DNA from: a virus
DNA: 64,000 nucleotides
IMG/VR virus record: IMGVR_UViG_3300020185_000016
Reading direction: 5' to 3' (one strand)
Of this stretch, positions 18,075 through 60,202 are shown piece after piece (within the stretch, counting starts at the first letter, position 1; every line of letters starts with the position of its first letter). Below the pieces are notes generated by a model. The model was not told the origin of the DNA. It did no database searches and saw nothing but the letters and a program-made list of their open reading frames with translations. A program made the translations under genes and the position numbers.

Positions 18075-18075
18075 T

Positions 18076-19409: not shown

Positions 19410-19516
19410 TCTAATGGTTCCTTTGAAAAGAAATAATCATGTTGAATTAGTATTTTTTTATTTCTTAGATGGTCTTTAATTTTTTTCTTTTACGTAAGTG
19501 TCAAGGCGAGAGGTTG

Positions 19517-21467: not shown

Positions 21468-21477
21468 TATTTTATTC

Positions 21478-21912
21478 CTATCCGGTTTTTGGTTGAGCTT
21501 CTTTTGCCGAGAACTCTTCAACAATTTCGCCCTCCATAAACTCTTTAACAATTTCCGGTTGGGTTTCGGCTTCTTTAACAATTTCTGGTTTTGGTTGAGC
21601 TTCTTTAACAATTTCTGGTTTTGGTTGAGCTTCTTTAACAATTTCTGGTTTTGGTTGAGCTTCTTTAACAATTTCTGGTTTTGGTTGAGCTTCTGCTGCT
21701 AAAAACTTTTCAACAATGGTATTTATTTTATCATAAACTGCACCAACAATAGAAAGATTTTGTGCAGTAAATACGCCAGCTTTAGTAGACGCGTCAATTA
21801 CTTGCCGTACAACTACCAGATCATTAATATCTAAATTTGTTGATTGTGACGCTGGTGGGCTAGATTTAACAGCAGCTTTACTTTTGGGCGCTGATTTTGT
21901 TTTTTTGGTCAT
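21478..21912 (-). CDS. Hypothetical protein with EAQPKPEIVK repeats
   Basis: In-frame decapeptide repeats. Confidence 0.7.
   Translation of the reverse strand: MTKKTKSAPKSKAAVKSSPPASQSTNLDINDLVVVRQVIDASTKAGVFTAQNLSIVGAVYDKINTIVEKFLAAEAQPKPEIVKEAQPKPEIVKEAQPKPEIVKEAQPKPEIVKEAETQPEIVKEFMEGEIVEEFSAKEAQPKTG
21541..21690. repeat. 30-bp tandem repeat: 4 perfect copies plus 1 degenerate
   Basis: ttctttaacaatttctggttttggttgagc at 21571, 21601, 21631, 21661. Confidence 0.97.
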
Positions 21913-35908: not shown

Positions 35909-36075
35909 TGGGATAACTCCGTCGTAGTTTCGGTTAATAAAGAAGTCTTAATTTGTAATTCTATTGGATTTGCTTCATTTAATTTAGTAGCGGATTCATT
36001 TGTAGGCTTACACTCACCACAGCAATTATCGGTACCACAATCCGGATGCTCATTCAATTGAGGATTAATTAACAT
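35905..36075 (-). CDS. Small Cys-rich protein
   Basis: HPDCGTDNCCGEC. Confidence 0.55.
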   Translation of the reverse strand: MLINPQLNEHPDCGTDNCCGECKPTNESATKLNEANPIELQIKTSLLTETTTELSQ

Positions 36076-36352
36076 TTTTTTTACCCCTATTATCATATTC
36101 GCCCATTTTCATAACTTGTTCTTTAGCATACCATTGTGGGCTATATGTTTCATGCCAATCCCACTCGCGTGTTTTTGAATTCCACTCCAATACTTTCCAC
36201 TCACCTTTATGACGAATATTTTCATCATATTGTTTTTCAATTTTAAATCTTCTACCGGTAGGAAAAGTAATTTCCTTTTCGCCGTTGGGTCCAGCCTTTT
36301 TCCATTTAGGCAATTTAACAGCTTCTGTTAAATGAGTTTTGAAACTTTTCAT
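36065..36352 (-). CDS. Putative internal head protein (CTS)
   Basis: MKSFKTHLTE/A. Confidence 0.7.
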   Translation of the reverse strand: MKSFKTHLTEAVKLPKWKKAGPNGEKEITFPTGRRFKIEKQYDENIRHKGEWKVLEWNSKTREWDWHETYSPQWYAKEQVMKMGEYDNRGKKNVN

Positions 36353-36642
36353 TTCATTAATTCTTTTATAATAGCTAAGGCTTTCTTACCATCAGGATGG
36401 TTTGGATTTATACTTACTTCATCACCGTTCATAAAATCAGATATATTTGCTGATTTACCTAATGCTGTAATTGCTTTATGTAATGGATCTCTTTTATCAT
36501 ATTTAGTTTCAAAATTAGGTTTACCCCGCAATTCAACCCAACTTTTTTCTTTAGTGTCTCTCATTTTTAAAGTATCCTGGCCTATGCCACGAATCAATTT
36601 AACCATAACACCTTCAGAAATATATGTTTTAAATTTTAGCAT
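36349..36642 (-). CDS. Putative internal head protein (CTS)
   Basis: Start trimmed to MLKFKTYISE/G. Confidence 0.7.
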   Translation of the reverse strand: MLKFKTYISEGVMVKLIRGIGQDTLKMRDTKEKSWVELRGKPNFETKYDKRDPLHKAITALGKSANISDFMNGDEVSINPNHPDGKKALAIIKELMK

Positions 36643-36644
36643 TG

Positions 36645-36950
36645 CTAAATACCCGGTTCTATTATTTTTAAAATTAAAGTGCCGTCGCTGGGACAACCCG
36701 TAGGAGGTTTGCCCTTTATTAACCTATGATATTCCATTTTTTTTATTTGAAATGTTGTACCTTCTTCCATCATATGAGGAAGAGTATTTTCCATTTGGAA
36801 TAACCAACCAGCACTATTATGTACAACAAGAACTAATCTATCTTTTTTATCCCTATGCCAATGTAAATCGCCGCCTTCACAATCATATGCAAAAGTTCTA
36901 AACCATACATTTTCTTCAACAGTTGGGATATCGAAATAAGGAGCTACCAA
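36645..36950 (-). CDS. Cupin-fold protein
   Basis: LHWHRD...EYHRLIKG; probable TTG start overlapping the upstream stop. Confidence 0.7.
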   Translation of the reverse strand: MVAPYFDIPTVEENVWFRTFAYDCEGGDLHWHRDKKDRLVLVVHNSAGWLFQMENTLPHMMEEGTTFQIKKMEYHRLIKGKPPTGCPSDGTLILKIIEPGI

Positions 36951-37480
36951 AAGAAATTTCCACCCCCGCTTAATCCCAGCTGATCGGCATAATATGGTAA
37001 TCGACATGCCCAATAACCAGCAGTCATTTTATCGGTTTTTGTATCACATTGATGTCTAGCAGCAAAAGACTTACGAGCTGCCGGATCATCAATTTTTGCT
37101 TTCAATCCTGTGGTATCACCCCATGAAATTTTTTTAATCTTATCAGTTTTAGGATCTTTAACATAAACATAATATTTTTTTGGGCCGCCACGCTTTGGTT
37201 TATTTAATGGCATATCCTGCTCTTTTTCTTCGAGCATTGGTGAATCTAAGGGCACATGCTGATGATTATAAAAAGCAAATTCCCCAATATCGGTTTGTTC
37301 AATCATAAATAAATCGCGACCAGATAACTCAATATTACCTTCAGCATATTGCTTTCGGGCATCTCTGAAAACTTTATAATAAGATTCTGAGCCAACTCTA
37401 TATAACTCACCAAGAGAAATATTATTTTCTACAACATACGTTAAATTAGTGTCATTTACAAAGTTTTTAAATTTAATCAT
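36944..37480 (-). CDS. Putative internal head protein, two modules
   Basis: MIKFKNF..YVVE; MLEE/KEQDMPLNKPKRGG..RKSF.ARH.C. Confidence 0.75.
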   Translation of the reverse strand: MIKFKNFVNDTNLTYVVENNISLGELYRVGSESYYKVFRDARKQYAEGNIELSGRDLFMIEQTDIGEFAFYNHQHVPLDSPMLEEKEQDMPLNKPKRGGPKKYYVYVKDPKTDKIKKISWGDTTGLKAKIDDPAARKSFAARHQCDTKTDKMTAGYWACRLPYYADQLGLSGGGNFFW

Positions 37481-37481
37481 T

Positions 37482-37964
37482 TTATATTAATCCCTTTGAA
37501 TCCATAACTAAATATCCTATACCGCCAAATACTCCGATACAAGCAAACATTAATATTAATATAGCTAAAGTATTTAATAAATTTTTACGCATTTCGGCCT
37601 GGCGATATACAGTTTCTTGCCTTTGTTTTGCTATCTTACGACGCATGCGAATTAATTCATCCCAGGCATTTGCTCCATATCTAAACATTAGCATTGTTCT
37701 TAATTCTTTTTCTTGTTCAATTATTTTCTTTTCTTGAATAAGCAATGCTAAAGCTTCTTCTTCAATAGATCCGCTAGCAAATAGCCGTTTAAAAATTGGC
37801 GGATTTTTTGCTTGTTCTTTTGCAAATCTAAAATCATTTACTGCGCTATACCACTTACCTAATTGCTGAGCAGTATCTTCAAATTCCCTACCAGCCGCAA
37901 CCATTCGAGTTACTACATTATATGCAGAGGTAGCCATAGTTATTGCTGATATTGGATCTATCAT
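37482..37964 (-). CDS. Coiled-coil protein with C-terminal TM
   Basis: MIDPISA start; TM at C-terminus. Confidence 0.7.
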   Translation of the reverse strand: MIDPISAITMATSAYNVVTRMVAAGREFEDTAQQLGKWYSAVNDFRFAKEQAKNPPIFKRLFASGSIEEEALALLIQEKKIIEQEKELRTMLMFRYGANAWDELIRMRRKIAKQRQETVYRQAEMRKNLLNTLAILILMFACIGVFGGIGYLVMDSKGLI

Positions 37965-38215
37965 TATTCGGTTTCTTTTTTATCTAAAACTGCATACATG
38001 TCTTTAGCTTTTTCATGAAACCCGCTTAATTTATTTTGCATCCATTCCGGAAATTTTTTATTATTTTGAATATGTTCAGCTACTTCTTTGCCTACATATT
38101 GAATAAATTCTGCTTGTTGCATAGCCATACCGGCTTCATCTGGGGAAGCCGGTTTATCATCTTCTGGCGCTTCTGTAATAATGCGGAATTCTCTTAATTG
38201 GGTAAAGGATTTCAT
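37964..38215 (-). CDS. Putative internal head protein (CTS)
   Basis: MKSFTQLRE..IITE/A; PEWMQNKL. Confidence 0.7.
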   Translation of the reverse strand: MKSFTQLREFRIITEAPEDDKPASPDEAGMAMQQAEFIQYVGKEVAEHIQNNKKFPEWMQNKLSGFHEKAKDMYAVLDKKETE

Positions 38216-38216
38216 T

Positions 38217-41075
38217 TTATTTTACCTTACTCATTGCAAAATCCATCATTTTCATAAACCTGGTTTCGTCTTTGTTAATTGCGTCAGCAAACTTTTTCTT
38301 GTTTGCATCGTTCAACGAGTCATGCACCTTTACCATTGCAGATGCAGTGAACATATCAACTTTTGTCTTTGAACCAGAAGCAAATTTAACAGCTCCGGCC
38401 GACTTTGTGTTTACGATTTTACGAAGATCATCGATAACGCCTTCTGATACAACTTCTACATAATCTTTATTACTAGGTAATTTGCCTTTATTAAGACCAT
38501 TTTTAGCTTTATGTTTATCAAATGTGGGTTTAATACCACGCTTTTTAGCATTCTTTTCAGCTTTATCGATATCAACCATATGCTTAGCATAACCCTTCTT
38601 AAACATTTTAGGGTCAGATTTTTTATGTTCATCGTCATTTTTTGATTGCTTTTTATTACGCCAATCAATAAATTTTTTGCCGGACATTGCTGCGGCCCGA
38701 TCACTGGAGGTATATTTACCGCCAAATAGACCTTTATTATCTTTGTATTTAGCACTGGTACCAGCAGCCTCTTCTAGCGGATTAGTAAAGCTATCGGCCT
38801 TTAAGCGGCCAATAATACGTCCACCCCCATCTGTAACAATAAAATCGCCGTTATCAGCAATACGAGAAGTTGTTCCGGCTTTTGCTCTTTTACCACCAAG
38901 AGCCTTTGTCATTAGGGCCTTTACTGCTCTTTCTTTTACGCCTTCATCAAGTTCAATTTCTTCATTACGTATATTTTTCTGAAATGCTTTGTATTCTTTG
39001 CGGCGGTCTGCGTCTTTATCTAATAAAGAAAGAATTTTTTCACGTGGCTCTGTGTCTAAGTCATCGACAAACTTCTTCAGTTGTGCTGTTTGACCTTTCT
39101 TCATCATCATAGCAGCTTTTATAAAGTCCATCTTATCAATGCCGCCATGTTTACGGGCATAATCTTCAAGTTCTTTTGCAACACGTGACATTGTAGCTTC
39201 ATCAAGATTCGATTCTCTTATTGAGGCTTTGTACAATTCTAAACCTTTAGAATATGCTGGGTTTTTCATCATTCGCTTTGACTCAGCATCATCTGGATTT
39301 TGATGAGCCATGCGAACTGTTGGTTCGTCTAATTTATTGGCTTTCATATGCTTTTTATATGCATCAAACTTTTTAGAATCTACTGCTGGACCAAATCTGT
39401 TTCTCATCGGCGTGGTTGTTTCATTAACAGATTCAGCAAGCTTCCAACCCTTTGCAAGATATTCTTTTTGTTTAGTCTTATCAATAACAATAGTTTTGCC
39501 GGCTTTATCTACAACCATGACTTCGGTTTTAGGATTTTTTAACTGCCGAGCCTCCTCAACAGATTCGGTAAATTCAACTGGAACAAGGATGGATCCTTTA
39601 GACCCACCATTAACCATCATCATTTCATCACCTTTACGAGCAATTTTAAAATCTTTGTGAATTTTTTTAAAGTTAGCTTTTGAAATATAAACTTTATTAT
39701 TTTTTACTTCATAATCGCGATCCCGTAAAACGGCTTCGTCAAGCGATTCAAATTGCATAGTATGTTGGCCACTGCCACGAACCTTTTCGGCTGCGGCTTT
39801 AGATGAATATGGGGCACCTTGATTAACAAATTTGCCACCAGAAAACTTTTGAACCTGAAACCCGGATTTTGCTTTAGCGCCGGCTCTGTTATCAGGGTGG
39901 GCATTCGACAAATCTATAATACGGATTTGACCGGTTTTAGCTTCAGAAATAGCCTCATCGCCCTTATCGGTTTCGCTGTTTATATTTTGTTTAAATTTAT
40001 TCCAATTATAATCGCGGATAATTTTTAAGATTGCATCTCTATTACTAGAACGCTTGTCAATATATTTACCAACAATGACATCAATAGACATTTTGGCTTC
40101 AAGATCTTTAATAATCTTTTTAGCTGGTAATTTAGCTTCATCTACATATTCAATACCTTCTTTCATATCGATAAGACTTGCACCTAAATCGCCAATAGCA
40201 AAGGTAATTTTACCGTCCTTTTTTCTACGTAAGAAAGATTTAACACCACCAGATTTTGCTTGAAGAGTAATTTTTTCTTGTTCGGAAGGCTTACCTTTTA
40301 AAACGGTTGTTTTTGATAAAACTTTATATTCGACAAAATCTCCACCTTTAGATAACGTTGAATCAAATTTAATTTTTACATTATCATTTTTCTTTAACTT
40401 ATCGAAAATAGCAGAATGTTTGTCGGTCATTTCAGTTAATCCTTTAATTTGTGTAATTTCTGTGGTAGCTTCTGCCATTGCAGGCTTTTCAATCATATAC
40501 ATTTGTACAGATTCCGTTGGAACAATTCCACCACTTTTCCATACTTTTGGGGCAATAAGAACTCGCGGTCCTCTTAATTCTTTTACAATATAATCCATTT
40601 TAGCTTCGGCTGGTCCGTCAGCGTATTTCTTTTTTAAACGAACAGTATCACCTTTTTTAATTTCGGTTTTTGCTTCATAAGCTGGGCCACGCTTTGGTGA
40701 TCCTGGATTTGGCTGTTTTAAATTTTTACGAAGTGCTGCAAGATCATTTTTAAGCTTGCTTATCTTAAAAGATTTCATAACATTTGAATTGCCAGATTTT
40801 GTTATAGCATTTTTTGTTAATTGCATAGACTCTTCGGTATTTTCTTTACGTGACATAGATTTATCCATTTTATCGGCCGCGGAATTGAATAGTTTAGTAT
40901 AAGTTTTTTCATTTTCGGCGGCCGAAGGCATTGCCATCATAACATCATCATTAACAAGATCCCAATTAATTGAACCATCTTTATTATAATTAGCCTTATC
41001 TTTTAAAGACTTTTTTATGTGTTTTTCAATATTAGATTTATTAAGAGAAGCCTCTTGCAAATTACGATTTTCCAT
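38217..41075 (-). CDS. 952-aa Lys-rich modular polyprotein, putative prohead-protease substrate
   Basis: GAGG RBS before MENRNLQE/A; repeated hydrophobic-x-E/(A,G,S,T) linkers. Confidence 0.85.
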   Translation of the reverse strand: MENRNLQEASLNKSNIEKHIKKSLKDKANYNKDGSINWDLVNDDVMMAMPSAAENEKTYTKLFNSAADKMDKSMSRKENTEESMQLTKNAITKSGNSNVMKSFKISKLKNDLAALRKNLKQPNPGSPKRGPAYEAKTEIKKGDTVRLKKKYADGPAEAKMDYIVKELRGPRVLIAPKVWKSGGIVPTESVQMYMIEKPAMAEATTEITQIKGLTEMTDKHSAIFDKLKKNDNVKIKFDSTLSKGGDFVEYKVLSKTTVLKGKPSEQEKITLQAKSGGVKSFLRRKKDGKITFAIGDLGASLIDMKEGIEYVDEAKLPAKKIIKDLEAKMSIDVIVGKYIDKRSSNRDAILKIIRDYNWNKFKQNINSETDKGDEAISEAKTGQIRIIDLSNAHPDNRAGAKAKSGFQVQKFSGGKFVNQGAPYSSKAAAEKVRGSGQHTMQFESLDEAVLRDRDYEVKNNKVYISKANFKKIHKDFKIARKGDEMMMVNGGSKGSILVPVEFTESVEEARQLKNPKTEVMVVDKAGKTIVIDKTKQKEYLAKGWKLAESVNETTTPMRNRFGPAVDSKKFDAYKKHMKANKLDEPTVRMAHQNPDDAESKRMMKNPAYSKGLELYKASIRESNLDEATMSRVAKELEDYARKHGGIDKMDFIKAAMMMKKGQTAQLKKFVDDLDTEPREKILSLLDKDADRRKEYKAFQKNIRNEEIELDEGVKERAVKALMTKALGGKRAKAGTTSRIADNGDFIVTDGGGRIIGRLKADSFTNPLEEAAGTSAKYKDNKGLFGGKYTSSDRAAAMSGKKFIDWRNKKQSKNDDEHKKSDPKMFKKGYAKHMVDIDKAEKNAKKRGIKPTFDKHKAKNGLNKGKLPSNKDYVEVVSEGVIDDLRKIVNTKSAGAVKFASGSKTKVDMFTASAMVKVHDSLNDANKKKFADAINKDETRFMKMMDFAMSKVK

Positions 41076-41553
41076 TGTAACCTCTACCGATTGATTTACG
41101 GAATTGTTTAACACCAACTCTATCAGACATGTCTTGGCCCTTTTCACGCTTACGAATAGTTTCTTTTTCTTTTGAAATTTCAGGATTGCCGCGAAGAAGT
41201 TTAGCTGTTGCAGTATTACGAGCCTTATCACTTTTCATTTTAGCTTTTTTTCTATAGCTATCCAATGCGCCTGGACGATCTAGAACTTCATCAATAGTCT
41301 CTTCATTCTTGCCTCTTACTTTATCCGCTAAATCTTTATCGGCTTTGCCCCATGTGCCCGGAGATTTTGTAGTAAACGAATTAACCCTAGCAAATCCCCA
41401 TTGTTCAGGAGTGGTTCCAGGTCTATGACCGGTTTTCCAAGCCGCTACACCGCGGTTATATACACTACGTAAAACACTTAATGGCATTCCAGATTTTTCC
41501 GCTTTATTTTTAAGTGCTTTAGTATTTTCATTAAATTGTTTAAAAGTTTTCAT
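41062..41553 (-). CDS. Putative internal head protein, two modules
   Basis: MKTFKQFNE/N; internal EETIDE/V. Confidence 0.8.
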   Translation of the reverse strand: MKTFKQFNENTKALKNKAEKSGMPLSVLRSVYNRGVAAWKTGHRPGTTPEQWGFARVNSFTTKSPGTWGKADKDLADKVRGKNEETIDEVLDRPGALDSYRKKAKMKSDKARNTATAKLLRGNPEISKEKETIRKREKGQDMSDRVGVKQFRKSIGRGYNGKS

Positions 41554-42752
41554 GGCTTTGTCGATCTATTTGTTGAACGTGTTTGTAAAGTTCGCGCGCG
41601 ATCTCGCATTGCATCAAATTTGATTTTATCTGCTCTTTTTTCTCTATTAATTCTATCATTTACTTTATCAATATAATCAATTTCTTCGTCGGTATCGCCA
41701 AACATTTGTGCAAATCGTTTAGTGTGCTTACTTGGCTTAGTTTTTGCAGTGGCATCGCCTGGTGCTTTTTTATAAGCATCGGGATTATTATCAGCCTTTT
41801 TAGCATTCTTTTTAAAATGTTGGTCTCTAGCAATTTTTGTAGACTTGTTCTTTATTCCAGCAAAATACTTTTTAGGCTGCGCTCCATCACGGTCCGCAAT
41901 ATCGGGATCTTGGGTAGTAGTTGTTTTTTCTTCAATTTTTTCAATTCTATCAAGCCATTGTCTAGATTTTCCGGATGAAGTTTCAACAATTACATAATTT
42001 GGGCCAAGTGTTGCAATAATACCAACCTCGCTTGTTTCAGTAATAATAATTTCTTCGCCTATAGAATACAAATCACCCTTTACATATTGCTCTCTAATAT
42101 CAGAAATAGATTCTAATTGAATGTGACGTTTAAATTCGGTTTCTTCTTTTAATCCCATGCCTTTACGCACATCATTAAAAAGTTTTTTTGCATCAGAATT
42201 ACTCATTGAAGTAGGAAGACCTTCATAAAATTTTGTGAAATTATTCTCTGCGGCAAATTTACGCTGCTTAGTTCCAGACGCACCGTCTGGCCCATCGCTA
42301 TCAGCATCTCGCATACCGGCCGATATTACCTGAACCCCACCATTAAAATTATAAAATCCGTGAGTAGAATCAACTCCATTATATTTATTTAATCTAATTT
42401 TATATTCATCCACTCTATCACTACCAGCTACCATAATAACTTTACGGAAACCCTGATCATAAAGATAAGCTAATGCAAAAAAAGGATTAATAATTTTTTT
42501 ATTAATTAAAATATTGCGGGCATGTTTTGGAAACATTTTTCGCACATGCTTTACCTTGTCCGCATATTTCAAAGGATTATCTTTTTTATCCTGAGATTGA
42601 GATAAAAAGATTTTATACGGCAAACGGCCAGCGGTTTGCGCTAGTTTATTTAATAATTTACCATGACCAACAGTAGGCGGATTTAATCTACCAAAAGTAA
42701 AATATACTATTTGGTCTTCTTCAATAATATATTGTTTAAAAGAATTAACCAT
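41550..42752 (-). CDS. HIGH-family nucleotidyltransferase with CTS and C-terminal modules
   Basis: MVNSFKQYIIEE; FGRLNPPTVGH, GSDR, SGTK.R. Confidence 0.85.
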   Translation of the reverse strand: MVNSFKQYIIEEDQIVYFTFGRLNPPTVGHGKLLNKLAQTAGRLPYKIFLSQSQDKKDNPLKYADKVKHVRKMFPKHARNILINKKIINPFFALAYLYDQGFRKVIMVAGSDRVDEYKIRLNKYNGVDSTHGFYNFNGGVQVISAGMRDADSDGPDGASGTKQRKFAAENNFTKFYEGLPTSMSNSDAKKLFNDVRKGMGLKEETEFKRHIQLESISDIREQYVKGDLYSIGEEIIITETSEVGIIATLGPNYVIVETSSGKSRQWLDRIEKIEEKTTTTQDPDIADRDGAQPKKYFAGIKNKSTKIARDQHFKKNAKKADNNPDAYKKAPGDATAKTKPSKHTKRFAQMFGDTDEEIDYIDKVNDRINREKRADKIKFDAMRDRARTLQTRSTNRSTKP

Positions 42753-43191
42753 TTTTAGATTGTGCCTTATGCTGTTTTCTATCTTTTTCAGCTTGACGCA
42801 TTTTTGGAAGCAATTTTACAGCAATGCGATCTATTCTTGAGCCCATTTTCTCAAGCCGTTTTTCTAATTCCATTTTACGAGCAACTGACATATCACTTTT
42901 CGGAATATCTTTTGTAAGTTTTTTAAGAATAATATTACGGGCTGCTTTACGTGCACGTTTTTTTAACACATCTTTATTGGCAGTACGACGTGCGGCGCGG
43001 TTGCGCCCCATTTTTAATTTAGCTTTATTACGTTTCATACTACGGCCGCGAGCTAATCGCTGTTGAATATTGAGAGCCTCATCTGGGCCACCACTACCGC
43101 CGGTTCTTTTTGTTCTATGTGCTTGATGTTGAACTTCGTCTGGTTCTCCATCACGCATATCTACAACTCTTAGATCTTTAAATCTAATCAT
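42745..43191 (-). CDS. Arg/Lys-rich late protein
   Basis: MIRFKDL; PDE/ALNIQQRLARGR. Confidence 0.8.
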   Translation of the reverse strand: MIRFKDLRVVDMRDGEPDEVQHQAHRTKRTGGSGGPDEALNIQQRLARGRSMKRNKAKLKMGRNRAARRTANKDVLKKRARKAARNIILKKLTKDIPKSDMSVARKMELEKRLEKMGSRIDRIAVKLLPKMRQAEKDRKQHKAQSKNG

Positions 43192-44420
43192 TAACTTCTC
43201 CCTGGCTTATCCCATCCTTTAATAATATCTGGCGAAAAGTTGTTGTATGAAAATTCTAATCTATCAACAATCTTTACAGCGTCACTACCCAGTCTATCAA
43301 TTGCTACATAACCTTCTTGACCCGTTGTTTTAAAACCATTTTTAGTTTTTACAAAAGTCTTTACTTTATTTATCCTATCAAGTATATTTATAAGTTTTAA
43401 TTTCGCTAAGACAATAACTTTCTGCAATTCGAACATAGTTATCAAATTATTTTTATTATTAGCCGAAAAAAATGATAAAATATCATTCAGTTTATCTTGT
43501 TTGCGCCCCTTACCTTTTTCAGTTTTAAGCTTATCCATTTCTTTTTGGAATTTTGCTTCAATAAATTTAATAAGTGCCGTTACTCTTTTGGCTGGATCCG
43601 GGGGCATTTGGCCTGCCCGTACATAAGAATTTGAATGTTGCTCTATTAATTGTGTTAAATCAGTATTAGCTTCTAAGGTGCGTAAAACGCCCCCCGAAAT
43701 TTTATTAAATAATTTTCCAGCTTGAGTTAAATAGTCATTTACTATATCGGAATCAGACTTATTCATAGTAAGATTTGTCATATCACGAAGCATAGCATCT
43801 TGCGACCAAACATTTTTTGATTTTTTAAGACGAGAAACATTAACACCATATGAAGCTTTCATAGTTTCAAATGTATTACCTTTATATGTAGTATGCCAAA
43901 CAATACCAATTTTAGATGCTAAAATTTCTTTTGATGATACTGTATTAGCTGGTACAGCATAAACAATAGTATTTGGATGGAAGGTGATATATTTTTCACC
44001 AGCAATAGTTTCATTACTAAGATCGCCTGGGCCGTATAAAAAATCGCCCTGAATAACTTCAGTAATTCCCAATTCGGGTAAATATTGTAAGGCTTGCTTA
44101 AGCTTTATAGCTAAATCGCCTGAAGTATCTGCATCTACCTCACCTGGAGTTTTATATACTTTTGGATTTTTATTAAAAATACCCTTTTTAGCAACAAAAA
44201 ATTTGCCATCAGCTGGATCAATGCCAGCAAATACTGCTGGTGCTCCATCCCATTTAACAGATATTTTCCCGTCATGTTCGCCCTTTAACATATTACGCAA
44301 TTCGCGCAAAGCCATAATAGCTTGACGAGTACCATTAACACCACCATAAATCACCTTATCTTCAAGGTGTGTCATGTGAGTATTTTTGTTTTCAGCAATG
44401 AAAGATTTAAAGTTTTCCAT
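43191..44420 (-). CDS. CTS-bearing protein with ligase-like nucleotidyltransferase motifs
   Basis: MENFKSFIAE/N; VKWDG, IQGDF, QEGYV, VKIV. Confidence 0.7.
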   Translation of the reverse strand: MENFKSFIAENKNTHMTHLEDKVIYGGVNGTRQAIMALRELRNMLKGEHDGKISVKWDGAPAVFAGIDPADGKFFVAKKGIFNKNPKVYKTPGEVDADTSGDLAIKLKQALQYLPELGITEVIQGDFLYGPGDLSNETIAGEKYITFHPNTIVYAVPANTVSSKEILASKIGIVWHTTYKGNTFETMKASYGVNVSRLKKSKNVWSQDAMLRDMTNLTMNKSDSDIVNDYLTQAGKLFNKISGGVLRTLEANTDLTQLIEQHSNSYVRAGQMPPDPAKRVTALIKFIEAKFQKEMDKLKTEKGKGRKQDKLNDILSFFSANNKNNLITMFELQKVIVLAKLKLINILDRINKVKTFVKTKNGFKTTGQEGYVAIDRLGSDAVKIVDRLEFSYNNFSPDIIKGWDKPGRS

Positions 44421-44452
44421 ATTTTAAATATTATCCGTATTATAATGTATGT

Positions 44453-45241
44453 TTAATTGTTTATTAGTATAAGATCAAAAGAAGCATTTACTTCTGTTTG
44501 TTGAGCAGCAACAGCATCTACACGAATATCACTTTTTTCTGCAAATACTAATGGTATTGGGTATTCAATAAATGTGTTTTGCCCGCCGGCTGCGAAATAT
44601 GTTCCTTTATTTCGGAAAATTCCGCCATCTTGAAAAGTTCTTTGTCTTAGTGTGTATTTCATAGCCGAATTAGTACTAGCCTTTGATGAACCAAATCTTA
44701 ATGAAAGCATATAAGCAGTTTTACCAGCGGGTACTGTATAAATAGCCATTAAGGTTTGAGCTTCATTTGCAGTAATCTGCGCGGCGGTTGTGGCTCCAAT
44801 ACTAATAATAACGTTAGCATCATTATTAATATCAACCATATATGCTCTATAAACTCTAAGAAAAGTTTTTACCCCAGTTGAACCAATAGGAATAGTTTCA
44901 CTTTGATCATTATAATTTTCATCTAATCCTTGAATAAAAACACTCGCACCAGAATTTTGTGTTGAAACAACAGAAATTACAGATGGAACAGTCGGAAATA
45001 CATAAGTACTGCTTCCAGTATTACCGTCCCAAATACTGCCTGCTGTTATATCGCCCGGAGTAGCACCAAATTTATTAATATGATTATAATTAGCAATTAA
45101 ACCGGCTGCAAGTGGAATATTACCAACATTTCCATTGCCGTTAAGTATATTACCATTTTTATCAGCCATCATAATCACTTCATGAATATCATTATTTCCA
45201 GCATGAAGTGGATTTTGTCTACTAACGCTATACTGTGCCAT
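44453..45241 (-). CDS. Putative virion structural protein
   Basis: Beta-rich, low charge, late region. Confidence 0.65.
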   Translation of the reverse strand: MAQYSVSRQNPLHAGNNDIHEVIMMADKNGNILNGNGNVGNIPLAAGLIANYNHINKFGATPGDITAGSIWDGNTGSSTYVFPTVPSVISVVSTQNSGASVFIQGLDENYNDQSETIPIGSTGVKTFLRVYRAYMVDINNDANVIISIGATTAAQITANEAQTLMAIYTVPAGKTAYMLSLRFGSSKASTNSAMKYTLRQRTFQDGGIFRNKGTYFAAGGQNTFIEYPIPLVFAEKSDIRVDAVAAQQTEVNASFDLILINN

Positions 45242-45255
45242 TTATAATTCCCTCT

Positions 45256-46008
45256 TTACATTTTTACCCTAGGTTTAATTGTGCCAGAAGTTATTCTTTC
45301 TAAGATAATATCTTTCTTTTGAACCAGTTTAATTTCAATAAGGTCCCCAAGAGAAAATCCGGCGCCAGTTTTATTAGCTAAAAAAATAATTTTATGATTT
45401 TTAAAATAATTTTTATAACTTAGATCTACAAATTCATCTTCAAGGTCTTTAAGCTGCGCCGGAAATTGTTTTCTTATTATATCAAGTTGTCCGCTATTAA
45501 CTTCGGATCCACTTCCTAATCCAGCATCTTTTTTTAAATCTTGAATCCCGCGAATAATTTCAGCAATAGAAAATGTTCCCCCAATTTTAAAATTATTAAC
45601 ATATTTACCATTAGCCGAATAATCAACAGCTTTAACTTCAAAGCTTCCTGCTGCATCCACAATATCAACTCCGGCCGAAGAGCCTCCACCCAAATGTCCA
45701 TTATTCAAAATAAAATATAGCATAACTTCACCGGGTCCTACCCCTTTAATATTATACTTATATAATGCTTCGAAGTTACGGATATCTATATTCCGTGCAG
45801 TTTTAATTGCTTTTTTAAGAGCTGACGCAGTAATTCGATCTATATGAACATCATTGCTATTATTAAATTTTGGAAAAAAATGTAAATGAAAAAGATGTTG
45901 AATTTCTTTTTTATAAGTCAAAGATTCAAAATCTTTTGCAATTAAATTAAATGAGGTCCGTACCATAGCTCTATTAAGAAACTCGGAATTTAATTGACTA
46001 GTATCCAT
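45256..46008 (-). CDS. Putative PD-(D/E)xK nuclease-like protein
   Basis: GPGE..; GVDIV....FEVKA; TATAAATA at 46040..46047. Confidence 0.55.
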   Translation of the reverse strand: MDTSQLNSEFLNRAMVRTSFNLIAKDFESLTYKKEIQHLFHLHFFPKFNNSNDVHIDRITASALKKAIKTARNIDIRNFEALYKYNIKGVGPGEVMLYFILNNGHLGGGSSAGVDIVDAAGSFEVKAVDYSANGKYVNNFKIGGTFSIAEIIRGIQDLKKDAGLGSGSEVNSGQLDIIRKQFPAQLKDLEDEFVDLSYKNYFKNHKIIFLANKTGAGFSLGDLIEIKLVQKKDIILERITSGTIKPRVKM

Positions 46009-46061
46009 TATTTTTTTCCACTAATAAACTTATTAGTATTATTTATATAAAAAAATATTAT

Positions 46062-46094
46062 AAAGCCCCCAATACTTAATGTGTTGGGGGCTTT
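46062..46094. terminator. Terminator separating early and late blocks
   Basis: AAAGCCCCCAATAC-TTAAT-GTGTTGGGGGCTTT. Confidence 0.85.
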
Positions 46095-46099
46095 TATTT

Positions 46100-46426
46100 T
46101 TAGGTTTTTTCATAAATATAAAGATCAAGTCTTTCTGCAAACTCAAGCGGTATTGAGCAACGCACTCGAGATTTTACAAATCGTACAAGATCAGATTCGC
46201 TAATATATGGATGTTTATTTGCATAATAGTCTTTAACTTTTTCATAGCGATTTTTTGTGCGGCCTTGCAATTTTACATAAAAACGCTGTGTAGCACCATG
46301 ACGAGCTAAATCTTTATTCATAGTAATTACCATGTTACGAATATCTGCAATTCTTTTTGAATCTTCGGCGGTTTTTTCAAAAGTTCCAATATAAGAATCC
46401 GAATATCTTTTATTTACTACTTGCAT
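46100..46426 (-). CDS. Hypothetical early protein
   Basis: YVKLQGR..LDLYIY. Confidence 0.7.
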   Translation of the reverse strand: MQVVNKRYSDSYIGTFEKTAEDSKRIADIRNMVITMNKDLARHGATQRFYVKLQGRTKNRYEKVKDYYANKHPYISESDLVRFVKSRVRCSIPLEFAERLDLYIYEKT

Positions 46427-46593
46427 GATTTCATTACTCCGCTTTTAACTGATGGTACAAACATGTCATAGTATTTTAAGTGAAGCTCTTTTGCACATTC
46501 TTCACTAATATATTCCCAACGCTCAGTTTCCTGAGTTTGCCAATTCATTATTGCTTCTACATACCACATTGCGCTATCCTTATTTGCTTTCAT
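46417..46593 (-). CDS. Hypothetical early protein
   Basis: GAGG RBS before MKANKD. Confidence 0.6.
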   Translation of the reverse strand: MKANKDSAMWYVEAIMNWQTQETERWEYISEECAKELHLKYYDMFVPSVKSGVMKSCK

Positions 46594-46603
46594 TTTATAC
46601 CTC

Positions 46604-46632
46604 TTTATAGCATAGTTTAAAACGAATGTAAA
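46604..46632 (-). promoter_or_regulatory. Early promoter
   Basis: TTTACA-N17-TATAAA. Confidence 0.85.
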
Positions 46633-46698
46633 CCCCCTAAACACAATTAATTAATTAATTTTTAAAAAAACTTATAAAATGCGTTATTTTAGTGGCAT

Positions 46699-46887
46699 TT
46701 ATTGAAATACACCCAATATTCTTAGTTTAACATTCTGAATATGGGTGCACTGTTTGCGAGGGTTCTTTTTACATGAACACGAAAAGCCATTATCATGCAT
46801 AGTAACAATACCTTTGGCATATTGCCATTTAGTACCGACCATCCAATGATTTACAGTATTAATTGAACCTGTTGAAAAAATTGTCAT
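46699..46887 (-). CDS. SWIM-type Zn finger protein
   Basis: FSCSC......CTHI. Confidence 0.75.
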   Translation of the reverse strand: MTIFSTGSINTVNHWMVGTKWQYAKGIVTMHDNGFSCSCKKNPRKQCTHIQNVKLRILGVFQ

Positions 46888-46889
46888 TC

Positions 46890-47060
46890 TTATGCTACAC
46901 CACTTACTACATCTACTGCATATTGAACTTCTTGTTGAAATTCAGTTTCGGTAGCTTCAGAAAAATCAAAACCGGAATACTCCATTTCATCTTGAATGAG
47001 CCGCGCAAAAGCTTGATTACAATCAAGGATAGACATGATTTGTTTTGTATAATAATTCAT
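46890..47060 (-). CDS. Small acidic early protein (56 aa)
   Basis: Hand-translated MNYYTKQIMSILDC... Confidence 0.6.
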   Translation of the reverse strand: MNYYTKQIMSILDCNQAFARLIQDEMEYSGFDFSEATETEFQQEVQYAVDVVSGVA

Positions 47061-47098
47061 AATGATTCTTCCCTTTGCTTCATTTCATTGTATATACA

Positions 47099-47127
47099 TT
47101 TATAACATAAAAGAAAGAAAATGTACA
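47099..47127 (-). promoter_or_regulatory. Early promoter
   Basis: TGTACA-N17-TATAAA. Confidence 0.75.
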
Positions 47128-47155
47128 CACTTTTTTTACTTTTTTATCTTCGTTT

Positions 47156-47313
47156 GAAACTATTTTATACATACGCCCGAGCTAGTATCTCCAATCTCCC
47201 CGCACGGCCTTATTGACATTGCCGCTCTGGTTCGATCGAAACTAACATCCCTTTCGAGATAGTGCTTTTAGCTGATCAACGCCTCTACACAGACGTATGT
47301 ATGAAATAGTTTT
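47156..47313 (-). ncRNA. Putative structured ncRNA, domain B
   Basis: Closing stem of about 22 bp (47156-47178 with 47291-47313), internal GAAA-loop hairpin. Confidence 0.65.
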
Positions 47314-47323
47314 CCTTGTCTTA

Positions 47324-47445
47324 GACTCTTTGCTGATTATATAGTGGTCTTAACTTAGTCCCTTACCAGGATTTTACGGGTTCTGCTCCATGGGCATACC
47401 TACCTTTACGGTTCTTCGCTCGTACTATATAATCAGAAAAGAGTC
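47324..47445 (-). ncRNA. Putative structured ncRNA, domain A
   Basis: 21/22-bp inverted repeat (47324-47345 with 47424-47445). Confidence 0.65.
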
Positions 47446-47461
47446 CTTTGTTTTAGTTTCC

Positions 47462-47668
47462 TTATGCGAAGTGGTTATCAACAAGCACACTAATGCAATC
47501 ATTCAGATACTCAGTATCATAGAAGACTCCAAGTGGAATAAAGATATCAGACTCAACAAAGTTCCAATTGATACCGCCACCTTCGTGGATATTTTCTGGA
47601 TTAACCACCGCAGCATTGAAAGCTTCGATAATGTCATTCTTAATCATTGCGCCATAAGTAGTAAGCAT
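47462..47668 (-). CDS. Early protein of the INW family (paralog of 59885..60175)
   Basis: IKND..EAFN.A....EN......INW.FVE.D shared. Confidence 0.75.
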   Translation of the reverse strand: MLTTYGAMIKNDIIEAFNAAVVNPENIHEGGGINWNFVESDIFIPLGVFYDTEYLNDCISVLVDNHFA

Positions 47669-47692
47669 AGTGTTTCCCCTTTTGATATATTA

Positions 47693-47721
47693 GTTATATC
47701 ATATTAAGATCTGATTGTAAA
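47693..47721 (-). promoter_or_regulatory. Early promoter (duplicated unit)
   Basis: TTTACA-N17-TATAAC; about 65 bp nearly identical to 48107..48175. Confidence 0.85.
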
Positions 47722-47748
47722 CCCCTAAAATGCATTTTTTTTATTTTT

Positions 47749-47913
47749 TTATACCAAACCAAATTGGCTAAAAAGTACTACCATTGCAATAACACCAACG
47801 AGGGCCCAGGCAAGAATAGTAAGTTCCCCTTCTGGAGATTTAGGAGTCTCAACAAACATACTACTAACTCCACTGAAAAGTACAGCGCCAATTATACTAG
47901 CAACTAATGTCAT
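47749..47913 (-). CDS. Small two-TM membrane protein (54 aa)
   Basis: Hand-translated MTLVASIIGAVLFSG... Confidence 0.6.
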   Translation of the reverse strand: MTLVASIIGAVLFSGVSSMFVETPKSPEGELTILAWALVGVIAMVVLFSQFGLV

Positions 47914-47914
47914 A

Positions 47915-48097
47915 TTAAGCTCCATCATCCATTTCTAATTCATATTCAATAAACTCTGCTTCTACCTTGCAGTCAGGATATTCCCGGTCAAGATACCGAA
48001 GCTCTTCAGAAGTTGCATAACCAGAGTATTCTTCTCCTGTATGAACAATTTCCCCAGCTTTGTTAGTAACTGTGAGTTTATAAAATCTTTTCCACAT
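47915..48097 (-). CDS. Hypothetical early protein
   Basis: GGAG RBS. Confidence 0.65.
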   Translation of the reverse strand: MWKRFYKLTVTNKAGEIVHTGEEYSGYATSEELRYLDREYPDCKVEAEFIEYELEMDDGA

Positions 48098-48121
48098 TGT
48101 GTATCTCCTTTTGATATATTA

Positions 48122-48150
48122 GTTATACCATGTAGAGATCTGATTGTAAA
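48122..48150 (-). promoter_or_regulatory. Early promoter
   Basis: TTTACA-N17-TATAAC. Confidence 0.85.
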
Positions 48151-48189
48151 CCCCTAAAGTGCATTTTTTTATTTAATGTGATATATTTG

Positions 48190-48447
48190 TTATGCCACCT
48201 CATAGCCTATTACAGTTTCTACATATCCATTACCATACTCTTCAGCAATCGCCAATAGGATCTGCTCACGTGGTTCTGTATCCATATTACCGATTTTTGC
48301 TAAAGCGCCGTCAATGTCATTCGAATTCATCAGCCACTGCACCTGCTTAAAATCAGCCGTATCGGCCAGATATAGATCAGCAAGGCCTGCATCTTGTGCT
48401 TCTAAGCTATAGCTGAATGTTTGATCGATAAGTTTTTGAATAGTCAT
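48190..48447 (-). CDS. Early protein with DTEPRE motif
   Basis: GGAG RBS; matches a polyprotein module. Confidence 0.75.
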   Translation of the reverse strand: MTIQKLIDQTFSYSLEAQDAGLADLYLADTADFKQVQWLMNSNDIDGALAKIGNMDTEPREQILLAIAEEYGNGYVETVIGYEVA

Positions 48448-48476
48448 GATAGGCTCCTTTGTTTCATTCTATATTA

Positions 48477-48505
48477 GTTATACCATATAATAAAGAGAAT
48501 GTAAA
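48477..48505 (-). promoter_or_regulatory. Early promoter
   Basis: TTTACA-N17-TATAAC. Confidence 0.8.
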
Positions 48506-48506
48506 T

Positions 48507-48535
48507 AAAAAAGATGCCCCAAAGGACATCTTTTT
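48507..48535 (-). terminator. Rho-independent terminator
   Basis: GATGTCC-TTTG-GGGCATC-TTTTTT. Confidence 0.75.
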
Positions 48536-48554
48536 CTTTAATGTGATATATTTG

Positions 48555-49532
48555 TTATGCTGCTGTTGCCATTTGAACGGCCAAATTTGCAGCCTTTATT
48601 TTGCGCAACCGATTATTACCGAACCATTGATTGTGTAACCGATTTTCAGCTCCTCGTCCTTGAAGATGGTCAGTGACATATGTTACTGAATTAAATGCCT
48701 GCCACCATGTTCCAGCACCAAATTCTGCGCCAGGTTGAATTTCAAGCATATCATATGCGGTTTGCGCATTGCGGCTTAAATCTTCTTTTTTTGTCACCGT
48801 TGTTTCAATATCTTTGCGCGAAGTAGATGGAAATACTTGGCTATAGTACTGAATAAGTGAATCAGCAGTAAAACGACGGCCGCCTAAAAATTGAGCCATA
48901 TCTTTATACTGAGTAAATTTTTCAGAAGCAAGCCCCAATGTTGTTTTCACATCATCAGCATTAAACACTGTGCGATGGCCAACTTTAACAGAACGCTCAG
49001 CGTGGCTGTTCAAGCTAAATGTAAGAGTATTATTACAAACAACACGAATAGGAGTAAATCGAATATCAATTGATTTACCATATTGATGAGGATTTGAAAA
49101 CAACAAATATGATTCAACGGTATCTTCTTTACCAAATACATCAAACGACTCTTTAATTTTTGCAAGAGCCCACACTTGTTGACCGCCTTTTAGCGAACCG
49201 GCAGTGTGCATTTCCATATCACCGGCCGCAACATATTCAGCAAAGAAATTAAAGGCTTCTTCATTTTGGACTGGATTCCAATTTTCGCCAACATTAGTAA
49301 GAACTTTTCCATCAGTTGAGCGAATAAGGGCTTGTTGACCAGTGGCAACATTATCGCCCTTCCAACGGACAAAAGCATCTACCTTTTCAACTTCCCAATC
49401 AAGACCAGCTTTTTGCATCATTTGCATAGGTGTAAGATCATTTGATACCGAAACACCTAAACCATGCCATGGCAATTCGCCTGCATAAGCCATCTGTGCT
49501 ACACCGTTTACAATTTCTACCTCATGTGCCAT
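48555..49532 (-). CDS. DUF932 / TIGR03299-like protein
   Basis: PWHGLG, LDWEV, PVQNEEAF, TPIRVVCNNTL, W.AFN.VT. Confidence 0.88.
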   Translation of the reverse strand: MAHEVEIVNGVAQMAYAGELPWHGLGVSVSNDLTPMQMMQKAGLDWEVEKVDAFVRWKGDNVATGQQALIRSTDGKVLTNVGENWNPVQNEEAFNFFAEYVAAGDMEMHTAGSLKGGQQVWALAKIKESFDVFGKEDTVESYLLFSNPHQYGKSIDIRFTPIRVVCNNTLTFSLNSHAERSVKVGHRTVFNADDVKTTLGLASEKFTQYKDMAQFLGGRRFTADSLIQYYSQVFPSTSRKDIETTVTKKEDLSRNAQTAYDMLEIQPGAEFGAGTWWQAFNSVTYVTDHLQGRGAENRLHNQWFGNNRLRKIKAANLAVQMATAA

Positions 49533-49560
49533 TTTATTCTCCAATATATCTAATAATACT

Positions 49561-49589
49561 ATAATAGCATATTACAAACAGATTGTAAA
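49561..49589 (-). promoter_or_regulatory. Early promoter
   Basis: TTTACA-N17-TATTAT. Confidence 0.8.
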
Positions 49590-49633
49590 CAGTTAATTTA
49601 AACTATTTGAATAAAAATTTTTATGTGATAATA

Positions 49634-49864
49634 TTATCGTTTACCGCTTCCAAATCGGTTTTTTGGTCTATAAAATGTTTTTTGATTATGAATACGTCCT
49701 AATAAATCACGAATTAATGTAATTTCTTTTTGCATCTCTTTCGCATAAATATTTGTAGGATCCATAGTTATACTCATAGATCTTCGATGCACTCGACCAT
49801 TTAATGCAGATTCGATCATCTCAATATCATCTACAGTTAATTCGAAGGTTTTATTGGGTTTCAT
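49634..49864 (-). CDS. Hypothetical protein
   Basis: GAGG RBS; LGRIHNQKTFYRP. Confidence 0.7.
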   Translation of the reverse strand: MKPNKTFELTVDDIEMIESALNGRVHRRSMSITMDPTNIYAKEMQKEITLIRDLLGRIHNQKTFYRPKNRFGSGKR

Positions 49865-49896
49865 TATCGCCTCTATGTTTCAAAATATAACTAAGT

Positions 49897-50640
49897 TTAT
49901 CCTAAGTTTAACTTTTGCATTTCATTTAATGCATCTTGTCTTATACCACGAAAAATTATCCCGCGGCGGATTTGATTGGTTTTATTTGGCATAATACTAT
50001 GCAGCACATTACCATAAAAACAACTGAACCCACCCAAAGAAACCGGTGGTTGAACATAATTATTTTCAAAGAAAGCTTTATAAAAAGGTTTTTCTTCATT
50101 CCAATTAGTGGTATTGTATATATATCTATGCGTTCCAGGTACATATGCAGTAGCACCGTTTTCTATTGTAAAATCAACTAAAGGAATCATAAAGGTAACA
50201 CTTAAAGGACCTTTATCTAAATATTTAGACATTTCGCATTCAAGTTTTTGTGGCCACAAATATGGCGCATCTAAGTGGGGCTGAATAGAATAATCATGCT
50301 TGTAATTAGACATAATATAACGGTTAGTTAATTGCCAGTCCCAATCTTTATTCCCAAATAAAACATCACAAATACTTTTTAATAACGGAAGCATGGTTGT
50401 GTTAATAAATAAATTATTTTTTGGAGTTTGTGCCCAATGATAAGCCCAATCAATATTTTTAATTTTAGCTTCTGATAACACATCTTGATCATTTAACCAC
50501 CGTCCATTACCATGACCCACAAAAGGCGGGAGTTTACTTGCAACTTTATTAAATGCAATTAAATCTTCGGTATTAAATACATTATCAACAATAGCAATAC
50601 CATCTTTATCTAAATCTGATAAAAAATTTTCTGTTAACAT
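49897..50640 (-). CDS. PhyH-family 2OG-Fe(II) dioxygenase
   Basis: HLD, NGAT.YVPGTH, LHS..N....R. Confidence 0.88.
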   Translation of the reverse strand: MLTENFLSDLDKDGIAIVDNVFNTEDLIAFNKVASKLPPFVGHGNGRWLNDQDVLSEAKIKNIDWAYHWAQTPKNNLFINTTMLPLLKSICDVLFGNKDWDWQLTNRYIMSNYKHDYSIQPHLDAPYLWPQKLECEMSKYLDKGPLSVTFMIPLVDFTIENGATAYVPGTHRYIYNTTNWNEEKPFYKAFFENNYVQPPVSLGGFSCFYGNVLHSIMPNKTNQIRRGIIFRGIRQDALNEMQKLNLG

Positions 50641-57305: not shown

Positions 57306-58100
57306 TTAGAATGCAAAGCTTAATTCAATTGAAGGAGAAAAATCTTCACTATTTAAATTATAATTTGCGCCTGTGGTAAGCTCAGCGCCCGCAATACCAT
57401 ATACAAATTCGCCACCAATATTTTGTAGCATATCAGTGTCGTCACCATTAATATATGTTGTAATTACAGATTGCTTTGCTACAAGCTCATAACCTATTGC
57501 TGTAGTGTCTACATCATAAGATACTGCACCGCCAACTGCGGCAACACCAAGATCAACACCAGTAACGCCGGCGCCAAATACAGTATTTTCAGTATTTAAG
57601 TTATAATCAGCAGCGGCAGTAATTTCAATTCCAGCTACGGATGGGAGTACAATTGCGCCCTGTACATTGCTAATATCTGTAATATCGGCAGCAATATCAG
57701 TAAATCCGATAGCCGCAGAAATTGCACCCATATTTACTTGTACAGATTCAGCCATTGCTGGAGCAGTAAGTGTTTGCTCGCCTTCGGCACCTGGCATTAC
57801 ACCATTGTCATCGCCAATTGCAATATCGATACCGGCTACTTGTGTGCCAATTGTCCAATTATCAAGAGTAACACCATTTCCGTCTGTTGCAGAAAAGTCA
57901 AGGTTTACAGTTGAAATACCAGCAACATCAATACCAAGATCGAATGTTGGAGTTGCGGCCCATTTATCTGCAGCGGTTTCTGCAAATGTTAAAACAGCTT
58001 TACCAGATAATGTTGGGCCATATGGCAGTACTGTAGTTTCAGCATATGCTGCACCAGCAAATCCTGTTACAAGTGCAGATGTGATAAGTAAATTACGCAT
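57306..58100 (-). CDS. Porin-like outer-membrane beta-barrel
   Basis: Signal peptide AAYA-E; amphipathic strands; terminal SFAF. Confidence 0.8.
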   Translation of the reverse strand: MRNLLITSALVTGFAGAAYAETTVLPYGPTLSGKAVLTFAETAADKWAATPTFDLGIDVAGISTVNLDFSATDGNGVTLDNWTIGTQVAGIDIAIGDDNGVMPGAEGEQTLTAPAMAESVQVNMGAISAAIGFTDIAADITDISNVQGAIVLPSVAGIEITAAADYNLNTENTVFGAGVTGVDLGVAAVGGAVSYDVDTTAIGYELVAKQSVITTYINGDDTDMLQNIGGEFVYGIAGAELTTGANYNLNSEDFSPSIELSFAF

Positions 58101-58146
58101 TTCGTATATTCTTTCTGATTTTATAAAAATTTTAAATATTAAATAT

Positions 58147-58314
58147 GCCACTTTTCTGTTGCTAAGCAAGTGGCCAGCTCCCTGTGTTTATGCAGCTAGT
58201 GCATAACCAGATGGTGCAAAGTTATTATTTGCAGTTATAGTGTTTGATCTATACGCGATCATCCGGTTAACTCCACTTCCACTTTCACACCTGTCGATCC
58301 TAAATGTCAGCCCC
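58147..58314 (-). ncRNA. ssrA: Two-piece tmRNA, coding piece (tag ANNNFAPSGYALAA, 58188..58232)
   Basis: 5' GGGGCTGA..GGATCGAC; resume GCA; ALAA-stop; 3' hairpin. Confidence 0.92.
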
Positions 58315-58404
58315 ATCAAAAACACTTGAAACTTCTCCATAGCATCAGGTAGCTAAATCCTTATCTACTTCATCGAATATAGGTCGTCACCTATCAAGTG
58401 CTTA

Positions 58405-58470
58405 TGGTGGAGCTGTCGGGATTCGCACCCGAGTCCAGTATGTGTCCACGTCGCTTCAACGTTAACAAAG
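58405..58470 (-). ncRNA. ssrA: Two-piece tmRNA, acceptor piece
   Basis: GAC-TCGGG-TGCGAAT-CCCGA-CAGCTCC-A-CCA; pairs with GGGGCTG giving G3.U70; 5' end approximate. Confidence 0.9.
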
Positions 58471-58554
58471 ATACTTATAAAAATTTAATGCAAGTTGTAA
58501 CTTATAATTTTATAATAATCAATTATGTGTTAATTATGTGACAATATAATGTAT

Positions 58555-60175: not shown

Positions 60176-60202
60176 ACTGATTCCTTTATTTAGTATATAA
60201 TT

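Follow-up and report, generated by a model that had tools for sequence, protein, structure and literature searches.

The 64,000-nt stretch of marine T4-like phage DNA analysed here (IMG/VR record IMGVR_UViG_3300020185_000016; hereafter the window, meaning the whole stretch) encodes two copies of what profile comparisons identify as one undescribed helical domain, DTEPRE: a free-standing protein of 85 amino acids (aa), and a module embedded in a 952-aa multi-module protein that we refer to as the polyprotein. We propose, at a rough probability of 0.55, that the two copies serve dual delivery of one host-directed domain, with the free form being expressed early and the late module being packaged. 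Both copies are encoded on the minus strand, and a scan with the A3 profile, which matches the module at E 8e-26, finds exactly these two in the window. Their locations are as follows, with polyprotein residues counted from the ATG at 41075:

48190–48447, minus strand: free-standing DTEPRE gene (P0002), an 85-aa open reading frame (ORF) with five predicted helices, a net charge of -11 and an isoelectric point (pI) of 4.05

38217–41075, minus strand: multi-module polyprotein gene (P0001), 952 aa, with about 10 modules split by [LIVM]-x-E/[AG] junctions (the slash marks the junction)

38943–39197, minus strand: DTEPRE module, residues A679–E763 of the polyprotein, between its Glu junctions

From stop to stop the polyprotein ORF extends over 38217–41231 (minus strand); the ATG at 41075 is the likely start, because it matches a 99% identical 952-aa metagenomic protein (P0110) and overlaps the stop codon of the upstream gene. 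Both protein strings quoted in the original prediction are present in the sequence, on the minus strand, and the ungapped alignment that it described is confirmed: 12 of 36 positions are identical, and exactly 22 residues separate D-x-x-D-F from DTEPRE in both copies. The range that it gave for the module, 38946–39200, does fall within the polyprotein (residues E678–D762) but is one codon off. The two copies have in common a signature in which 22 residues lie between D-x3-F and D-T-x-P-R-[ED], and the wider domain signature reads Y...D-x3-F...(22)...D-T-x-P-R-[ED]. The module has a predicted four-helix core, and its tail is generic and ends in ...EEIELDE.

By itself, the pair is marginal and lies within window-wide noise. 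While BLASTP of the two copies alone yields E 3e-4 (a single comparison), a search covering every stop-to-stop ORF of the window (386 in all) places the pair at E 0.34, rank 75 of 16,542 pairs. One could therefore ascribe the likeness to chance or to convergence on a short helix-capping motif, and human uteroglobin does contain, by chance, a similar ...VD-x-L-x3-PRE-x-I... stretch. The window alone being insufficient, homology is established because the family profiles of relatives link the copies. A free-family hidden Markov model (HMM) built without the window's row finds the polyprotein at E 1.8e-7 (next best window ORF, 1.8), and a module HMM built in the same manner picks out the 85-aa ORF (E 1e-7, with 0.4 for the runner-up), the other copy thus being the sole match of each among window ORFs. 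Alignment of the free-family and module-family alignments with hhalign gives a probability of 97.8% and E 1.3e-12 over 56 columns. The original prediction's claim of homology is borne out by this HMM-HMM alignment and by the reciprocal leave-one-out matches, and the same evidence led us to reject chance or convergence, to which we assign only the very slightest probability; the helices of the two forms are, in addition, in register, and the C-terminal helix is also common to bridging variants.

The conserved positions point the same way. The invariant residues of the free family are D29, F33, D56-T-E-P-R-E61, A66 and G72, of which exactly D29, F33 and D56–E61 recur in the window module; the free family's C-terminal G-N-x6-F-G-[VY]-x-[VIL] is retained by divergent module variants. 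The merged alignment runs end to end, with the module start after the junction E/ corresponding to the free protein's Met and the module end to the free C-terminus. As judged by these sequence comparisons, the two copies are true but ancient, distant paralogues; the domain to which both belong is undescribed, about 80 residues long, and predicted to have four or five helices.

Structure prediction is in agreement with this assignment. The free protein is modelled with five helices at a predicted local distance difference test (pLDDT) score of 92.9, and the module with four helices, the last one long, at pLDDT 80.9; compared through alignment A3, helices 1–4 of both forms are in register. Searches with the models (Foldseek against the PDB, VIA-align, BFVD, AFDB clusters and the ESM Atlas) brought up nothing beyond generic helical bundles and unnamed members of the family: Foldseek hits in the PDB had E 6 or worse, VIA-align (wide) reached Z 7.2 at best, on designed bundles, BFVD gave E 1.1 or worse, and the sole AFDB cluster match was an unnamed family member. 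Nothing usable came from a feature search of the Atlas. A secretoglobin/uteroglobin identity suggested by the PDB profile search was rejected: the whole-chain E of 1.4e-5 is an artefact of a tandem fusion construct, each copy scoring 13 bits with an i-Evalue of 0.7–0.9. The same type of search gave a weak match (E 0.11) to a chain of 87 aa that accompanies the deposited neck structures of Staphylococcus phage 812. Complex prediction for module plus free protein scored 0.16 against a mark of 0.32, which says nothing for or against binding.

The domain has so far been found only in marine T4-like phage contigs. P0002 has 107 marine-metagenome homologues of about 85 aa, down to 41% identity, the module recurs in >100 mosaic proteins of 556–1172 aa, and the merged profile detects 403 representative clusters in metagenomes at E ≤1e-3. 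PHROGs v4 contains no match to the domain, and the best Pfam match, at E 0.015, is below cut-off; the sub-cut-off Pfam matches (Ins_allergen_rp, DEK_C and MgtE_N) were disregarded as too weak. In a tree of 158 domains (47 free, 108 embedded and three short proteins), the 47 free-standing forms constitute one clade with 100% support, and the other clade contains all 108 embedded forms together with the three short leader-bearing proteins, two of which have leaders ending in Glu (MKSFKKYLGE/... and MEEVDMNE/A...). The free/embedded label changes 4 times on the tree, as compared to about 43 times when shuffled. The two forms also differ sharply in charge: the mean net charge is -7.7 among the free forms, which are acidic (median pI 4.3), and +4.0 among the basic embedded forms (median pI 9.5), the aligned core of the window module having a net charge of +5 and a pI of 9.6. 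D29, D56, T57 and R60 are conserved in 90–100% of representatives of both clades, and F33 and P59 in 81% and 91%, and 78% and 91%, of the two clades, respectively.

The tree thus indicates that the switch between free and embedded forms is essentially one ancient event, which may have run in either direction. The original prediction had suggested that modules were captured into the polyprotein; with a single ancient split and window copies that are distant paralogues, the tree shows no recent capture, and the idea holds only insofar as modules are mobile units.

The mobility of modules is documented by an exact insertion or deletion. The DTEPRE module is bordered by a 10-nt direct repeat:

39197–39206, minus strand: upstream copy of the repeat, CTTGATGAAG, at the module border, covering the codons L-D-E and the first base of the next codon

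38942–38951, minus strand: downstream copy of the repeat, CTTGATGAAG, exactly 255 nt (85 codons) from the upstream copy

In P0130, a version of the same polyprotein (98% identity across its first 383 residues), exactly the 85-residue module is missing (...SNLDE/GVKER...), and an extra 76-residue module is present elsewhere. Deletion between the CTTGATGAAG copies would yield the ...SNLDE/GVKER... junction of P0130, which suggests that modules are gained and lost by recombination between junction codons. Module order varies widely among relatives (G-F, F-G, I-G-F, J-G, C-G, G-H and more). The view of the modules as independent units is upheld by the exact 85-aa difference between near-identical polyproteins and by this shuffled order. 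Three relatives (P0236, P0245 and P0304) contain, far from the start of long ORFs and immediately N-terminal to the DTEPRE domain, strings of Met plus a leader (MPKTYKNIIE/A, MKRFGTFMNE/A), and these strings look like relics of the fusion of once-separate genes. A cytidylyltransferase-like enzyme, encoded here by a separate upstream gene (41550–42752, minus strand), is fused to the polyprotein N-terminus in relatives (L008 and L009); other relatives of the polyprotein add a Zeta-toxin-like/AAA_33 kinase and DUF5824.

The polyprotein is punctuated by candidate cleavage sites. It contains 11 [LIVM]xE[AG] motifs, as compared to 2.0 ± 1.4 in 2000 shuffles, at a spacing of about 60–190 residues. 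The embedded forms are bounded by [LIVM]-x-E/[AGN] junctions, a pattern that conforms to the cleavage rule of prohead proteases of the T4 gp21 type. L/V/I/M-x-E occurs ≤11 residues upstream of the domain in 84 of 94 embedded representatives, 74 of these 84 upstream junctions have A, G, N or S at P1', and a junction motif follows the domain downstream in 48 of 60. Leaders of a matching kind are found nearby: the N-termini of neighbouring genes read MENFKSFIAE, MKPFKLFIAE and MKSFKTHLTE, the close polyprotein homologue P0111 starts with MKTFKNLIAE, and [LIVMF]xE is present within residues 5–14 in 106 of 215 related long proteins. For comparison, the capsid targeting sequence (CTS) of T4 reads MKTYQEFIAE (PMC8442874); leaders of this type bring a diverse set of basic internal proteins into the T4 prohead and are removed by gp21 (PMC3012670, PMC9026906). 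Given the CTS-like leaders and the T4 precedent of gp21-trimmed internal proteins, cleavage, packaging and ejection of the module are plausible. In T4, cutting is blocked by Asp at the cleavage position of the CTS.

The two genes have different predicted transcriptional contexts. The elements upstream of the free gene and of the polyprotein are the following:

48477–48505, minus strand: sigma-70-type promoter (TTTACA-N17-TATAAC, its -10 hexamer preceded by TG); the 85-aa gene has its ATG 30 nt further downstream

48507–48536, minus strand: terminator-like hairpin and T run, just upstream of this promoter

46062–46094: hairpin with a 14-bp stem, separating the late motif from the upstream cassette region

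46040–46047, minus strand: T4-type late promoter motif TATAAATA, heading the co-directional gene string from 46008 down through the polyprotein

Four such sigma-70-type sites are observed in the window against 0.42 expected. The 85-aa gene is one of three consecutive small-gene cassettes with TTTACA-N17-TATAAC (47693–48554, minus strand); two of the three share an exact 18-nt element, CAAATATATCACATTAAA, right after the preceding stop codon (48172–48189 and 48537–48554). A terminator plus sigma-70-type promoter also precedes the free-form homologues in every locus examined (L001, L005/L007 and G006), which represent three other phage lineages, G006 being a complete 221-kb genome. In L005, gp23 immediately precedes the free-standing gene, and the contig also has Peptidase_S77 (PF03420, gp21 family), which is next to the portal, scaffold and gp23 genes. 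This context fits early transcription of the free gene by the host polymerase, with the timing read from promoter type. No strong terminator was found between TATAAATA at 46040–46047 and the polyprotein gene. As regards the original prediction of a promoter-proximal early protein and a packaged piece, its first half gains from the terminator and sigma-70-type promoter upstream, and for its second half the putative excision and packaging rest on motif enrichment, late-promoter placement and CTS-like leaders.

Put together, dual delivery would proceed as follows. The free gene, in its own terminator–promoter cassette, would be read by unmodified host polymerase right after infection, yielding an acidic cytoplasmic protein. 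The polyprotein precursor, made late, would enter the prohead core and be cut at the [LIVM]-x-E/[AGN] junctions; the basic module would remain with the packaged DNA and enter the next cell alongside the genome. Because the invariant residues of helix 2 and of the helix 4 cap are retained in both forms, a common host partner is probable; the injected module would act before phage gene expression, and the second form would come from early synthesis. Modules would be exchanged as cassettes via recombination at the repeated junction-coding sequence. More broadly, and at somewhat less than even odds, we suspect a recombination-driven capsid-cargo array in marine T4-like phages, in which small host-directed domains are joined at protease junctions and swapped via repeated junction codons, with at least one domain kept as a charge-inverted early paralogue.

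Several observations weigh against dual delivery. The early and packaged roles are, for this phage and its relatives, read from sequence motifs and from analogy. The polyprotein's own leader, MENRNLQE/A, with L-x-E at residues 6–8, is only loosely CTS-like. Protease and head genes are absent from the window, and the nearest intergenic TATAAATA is 5 kb upstream of the polyprotein. The window module has lost the family's fifth helix, which is replaced by the tail ...RRKEYKAFQK...NEEIELDE, and this replacement tail also closes other modules in relatives. The predicted fold is a generic helical bundle without an informative structural relative, so a host-binding role is a guess. The contrast between acidic and basic forms, while kept across both radiations, is essentially one evolutionary split. 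Finally, the free and embedded forms are not an obligate pair, many large contigs having one only. Both forms are present in the window, G006 (100% complete by CheckV, from which all completeness figures are taken) and G007 (26%); the free form only in G002 (42%), G003 (77%), G004 (83%) and G010 (57%); the embedded form only in G005 (91%), G008 (63%) and G009 (37%); and neither in the cultured phage Melnitz. Neither gene is present in the nearest related record, G001, a 23-kb fragment.

Part of this evidence can be read as showing that the large protein is never cut or packaged at all, and instead works inside the cell as beads on a string, the acidic Glu-rich stretches being flexible linkers and DTEPRE a general interaction module in two unrelated contexts. 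The polyprotein gene sits between nucleotide-metabolism genes (RNR, nucleotidyltransferase) and not among head genes, a position that is the same in relatives, and TATAAATA is not enriched across the window, with 14 found against 17 expected, a count at chance level. Flexible linkers would, however, account for mere acidity, whereas the junctions have a specific P3/P1/P1' pattern (L/V/I/M, invariant E, and mostly A/G/N/S); in addition, the leaders of close homologues and neighbouring genes are nearly identical to the T4 CTS, and the embedded forms are uniformly basic. We consider an uncut protein unlikely. Somewhat less likely still, in our estimate, is that the polyprotein is cut by the protease as head-core or scaffold material and expelled before DNA packaging, as are gp22, gp67 and gp68 of T4, in which case the module's role would lie in assembly and its paralogy with the early gene would be uninformative on function. 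The many junctions of the polyprotein fit such a role, as T4 core proteins are cut to many small fragments, most of which leave the head (PMC9026906). The extreme turnover of modules, with exact presence and absence between near-identical phages, is a better fit to accessory cargo; relatives fuse enzymes (Zeta-toxin-like kinase, cytidylyltransferase-like domains) into such proteins, and the early cytoplasmic paralogue keeps the same invariant residues.

The opposite net charge of the two forms, and their co-occurrence in the window, G007 and the complete G006, could also mean that the early acidic form binds the basic injected paralogue so as to neutralise or regulate it, acting as an antidote or timer and not as a second dose. 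An antidote is hard to reconcile with the largely complete G005, which has the embedded form only, or with G003 and G004, which have the free form only, and we give this arrangement a low probability, well below that of an uncut or expelled polyprotein. Dual delivery of one host-directed domain remains the reading that we favour.

The closest parallel to dual delivery is in T4, where Alt is injected and ModA and ModB are early products (PMC2988021), so that one family is deployed both as gp21-trimmed capsid cargo and as early gene products (PMC2988021, PMC9026906). The case described here differs in that the domain is an 80-residue helical bundle and not an ADP-ribosyltransferase (ART), in that the module is one bead of a multi-module precursor, and in that it is known from sequence. 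We found no sign of the ART catalytic fold, DTEPRE having no Pfam or PHROGs match and all-helical models, and the likeness to Alt, ModA and ModB is one of deployment logic only. The T4 internal proteins, which are basic (PMC9026906), offer a second comparison: like the putative cargo here, IPI, IPII and IPIII are small and basic, have leader or junction ends of the form hydrophobic-x-Glu, and present diverse, fast-turning contents behind a conserved address (PMC8442874, PMC3012670). Unlike the module, each has its own gene with one leader in T4, whereas here about ten modules share one ORF and move as cassettes; IPI–III resemble the module in neither sequence nor fold. In giant phages (SPN3US, phiKZ-like), many head-internal proteins are cut by a T4-related protease at x-x-Glu and ejected (PMC5694885, PMC10052503), but these are mostly single large proteins losing a propeptide, and arrays of unrelated small modules with early paralogues are undescribed there. 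For marine T4-like phages, our literature search yielded no account of either capsid-targeting leaders or cargo polyproteins.

Among cultured phages, neither a nucleotide search with 36000–50000 nor tblastn with the 85-aa protein gave a match. The polyprotein matches Melnitz only, at 41% identity over residues 199–358, which form a module other than DTEPRE, and Melnitz, the only cultured relative found, has no DTEPRE domain. Its L134 (17131–18519) encodes a 462-aa hypothetical protein with one module in common and similar Glu-rich junctions; this protein could be an experimental entry point.

Further features of the window lie outside the two DTEPRE genes:

58097–58498, minus strand: permuted transfer-messenger RNA (tmRNA; ARAGORN) with the tag ANNNFAPSGYALAA

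10029–12465, minus strand: cluster of six tRNAs (Met, Tyr, Asn, Gly, Leu, Arg)

Nearly identical short ORF pieces at 11355–11510 and 11620–11772 suggest a local tandem duplication. The small 'INW' genes at 47465–47689 and 59888–60244 match each other at E 6e-10. When the first polyprotein module (40830–41051) was compared with the small 'INW' gene (47462–47668, minus strand) by plain BLASTP, nothing aligned at E ≤100. Weak mutual similarity (E 2e-7 to 0.02) links the ORFs 17268–18146, 18744–19436 and 20682–21698 (minus strand), which may be a paralogue family.

Proteins that a phage injects are at work before any of its genes has been read and are prime candidates for counter-defence and takeover; to our knowledge, they are almost unknown outside T4 and a few giant phages. 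If a capsid-cargo array of the kind outlined above exists, the phage would have the same activity available from the instant of DNA entry and would renew it by early synthesis, and a long-standing two-way pool would link early genes and injected proteins. The domain family offers a testable handle on this, with 403 unannotated clusters, conserved candidate contact residues and two forms that differ sharply in charge and context. The early paralogues would then be soluble, easily expressed proxies for target finding, and, should cleavage in the virion prove true, ORFs punctuated by [LIVM]-x-E/[AGN] could serve as inventories of the effectors that abundant but uncultured marine phages eject.

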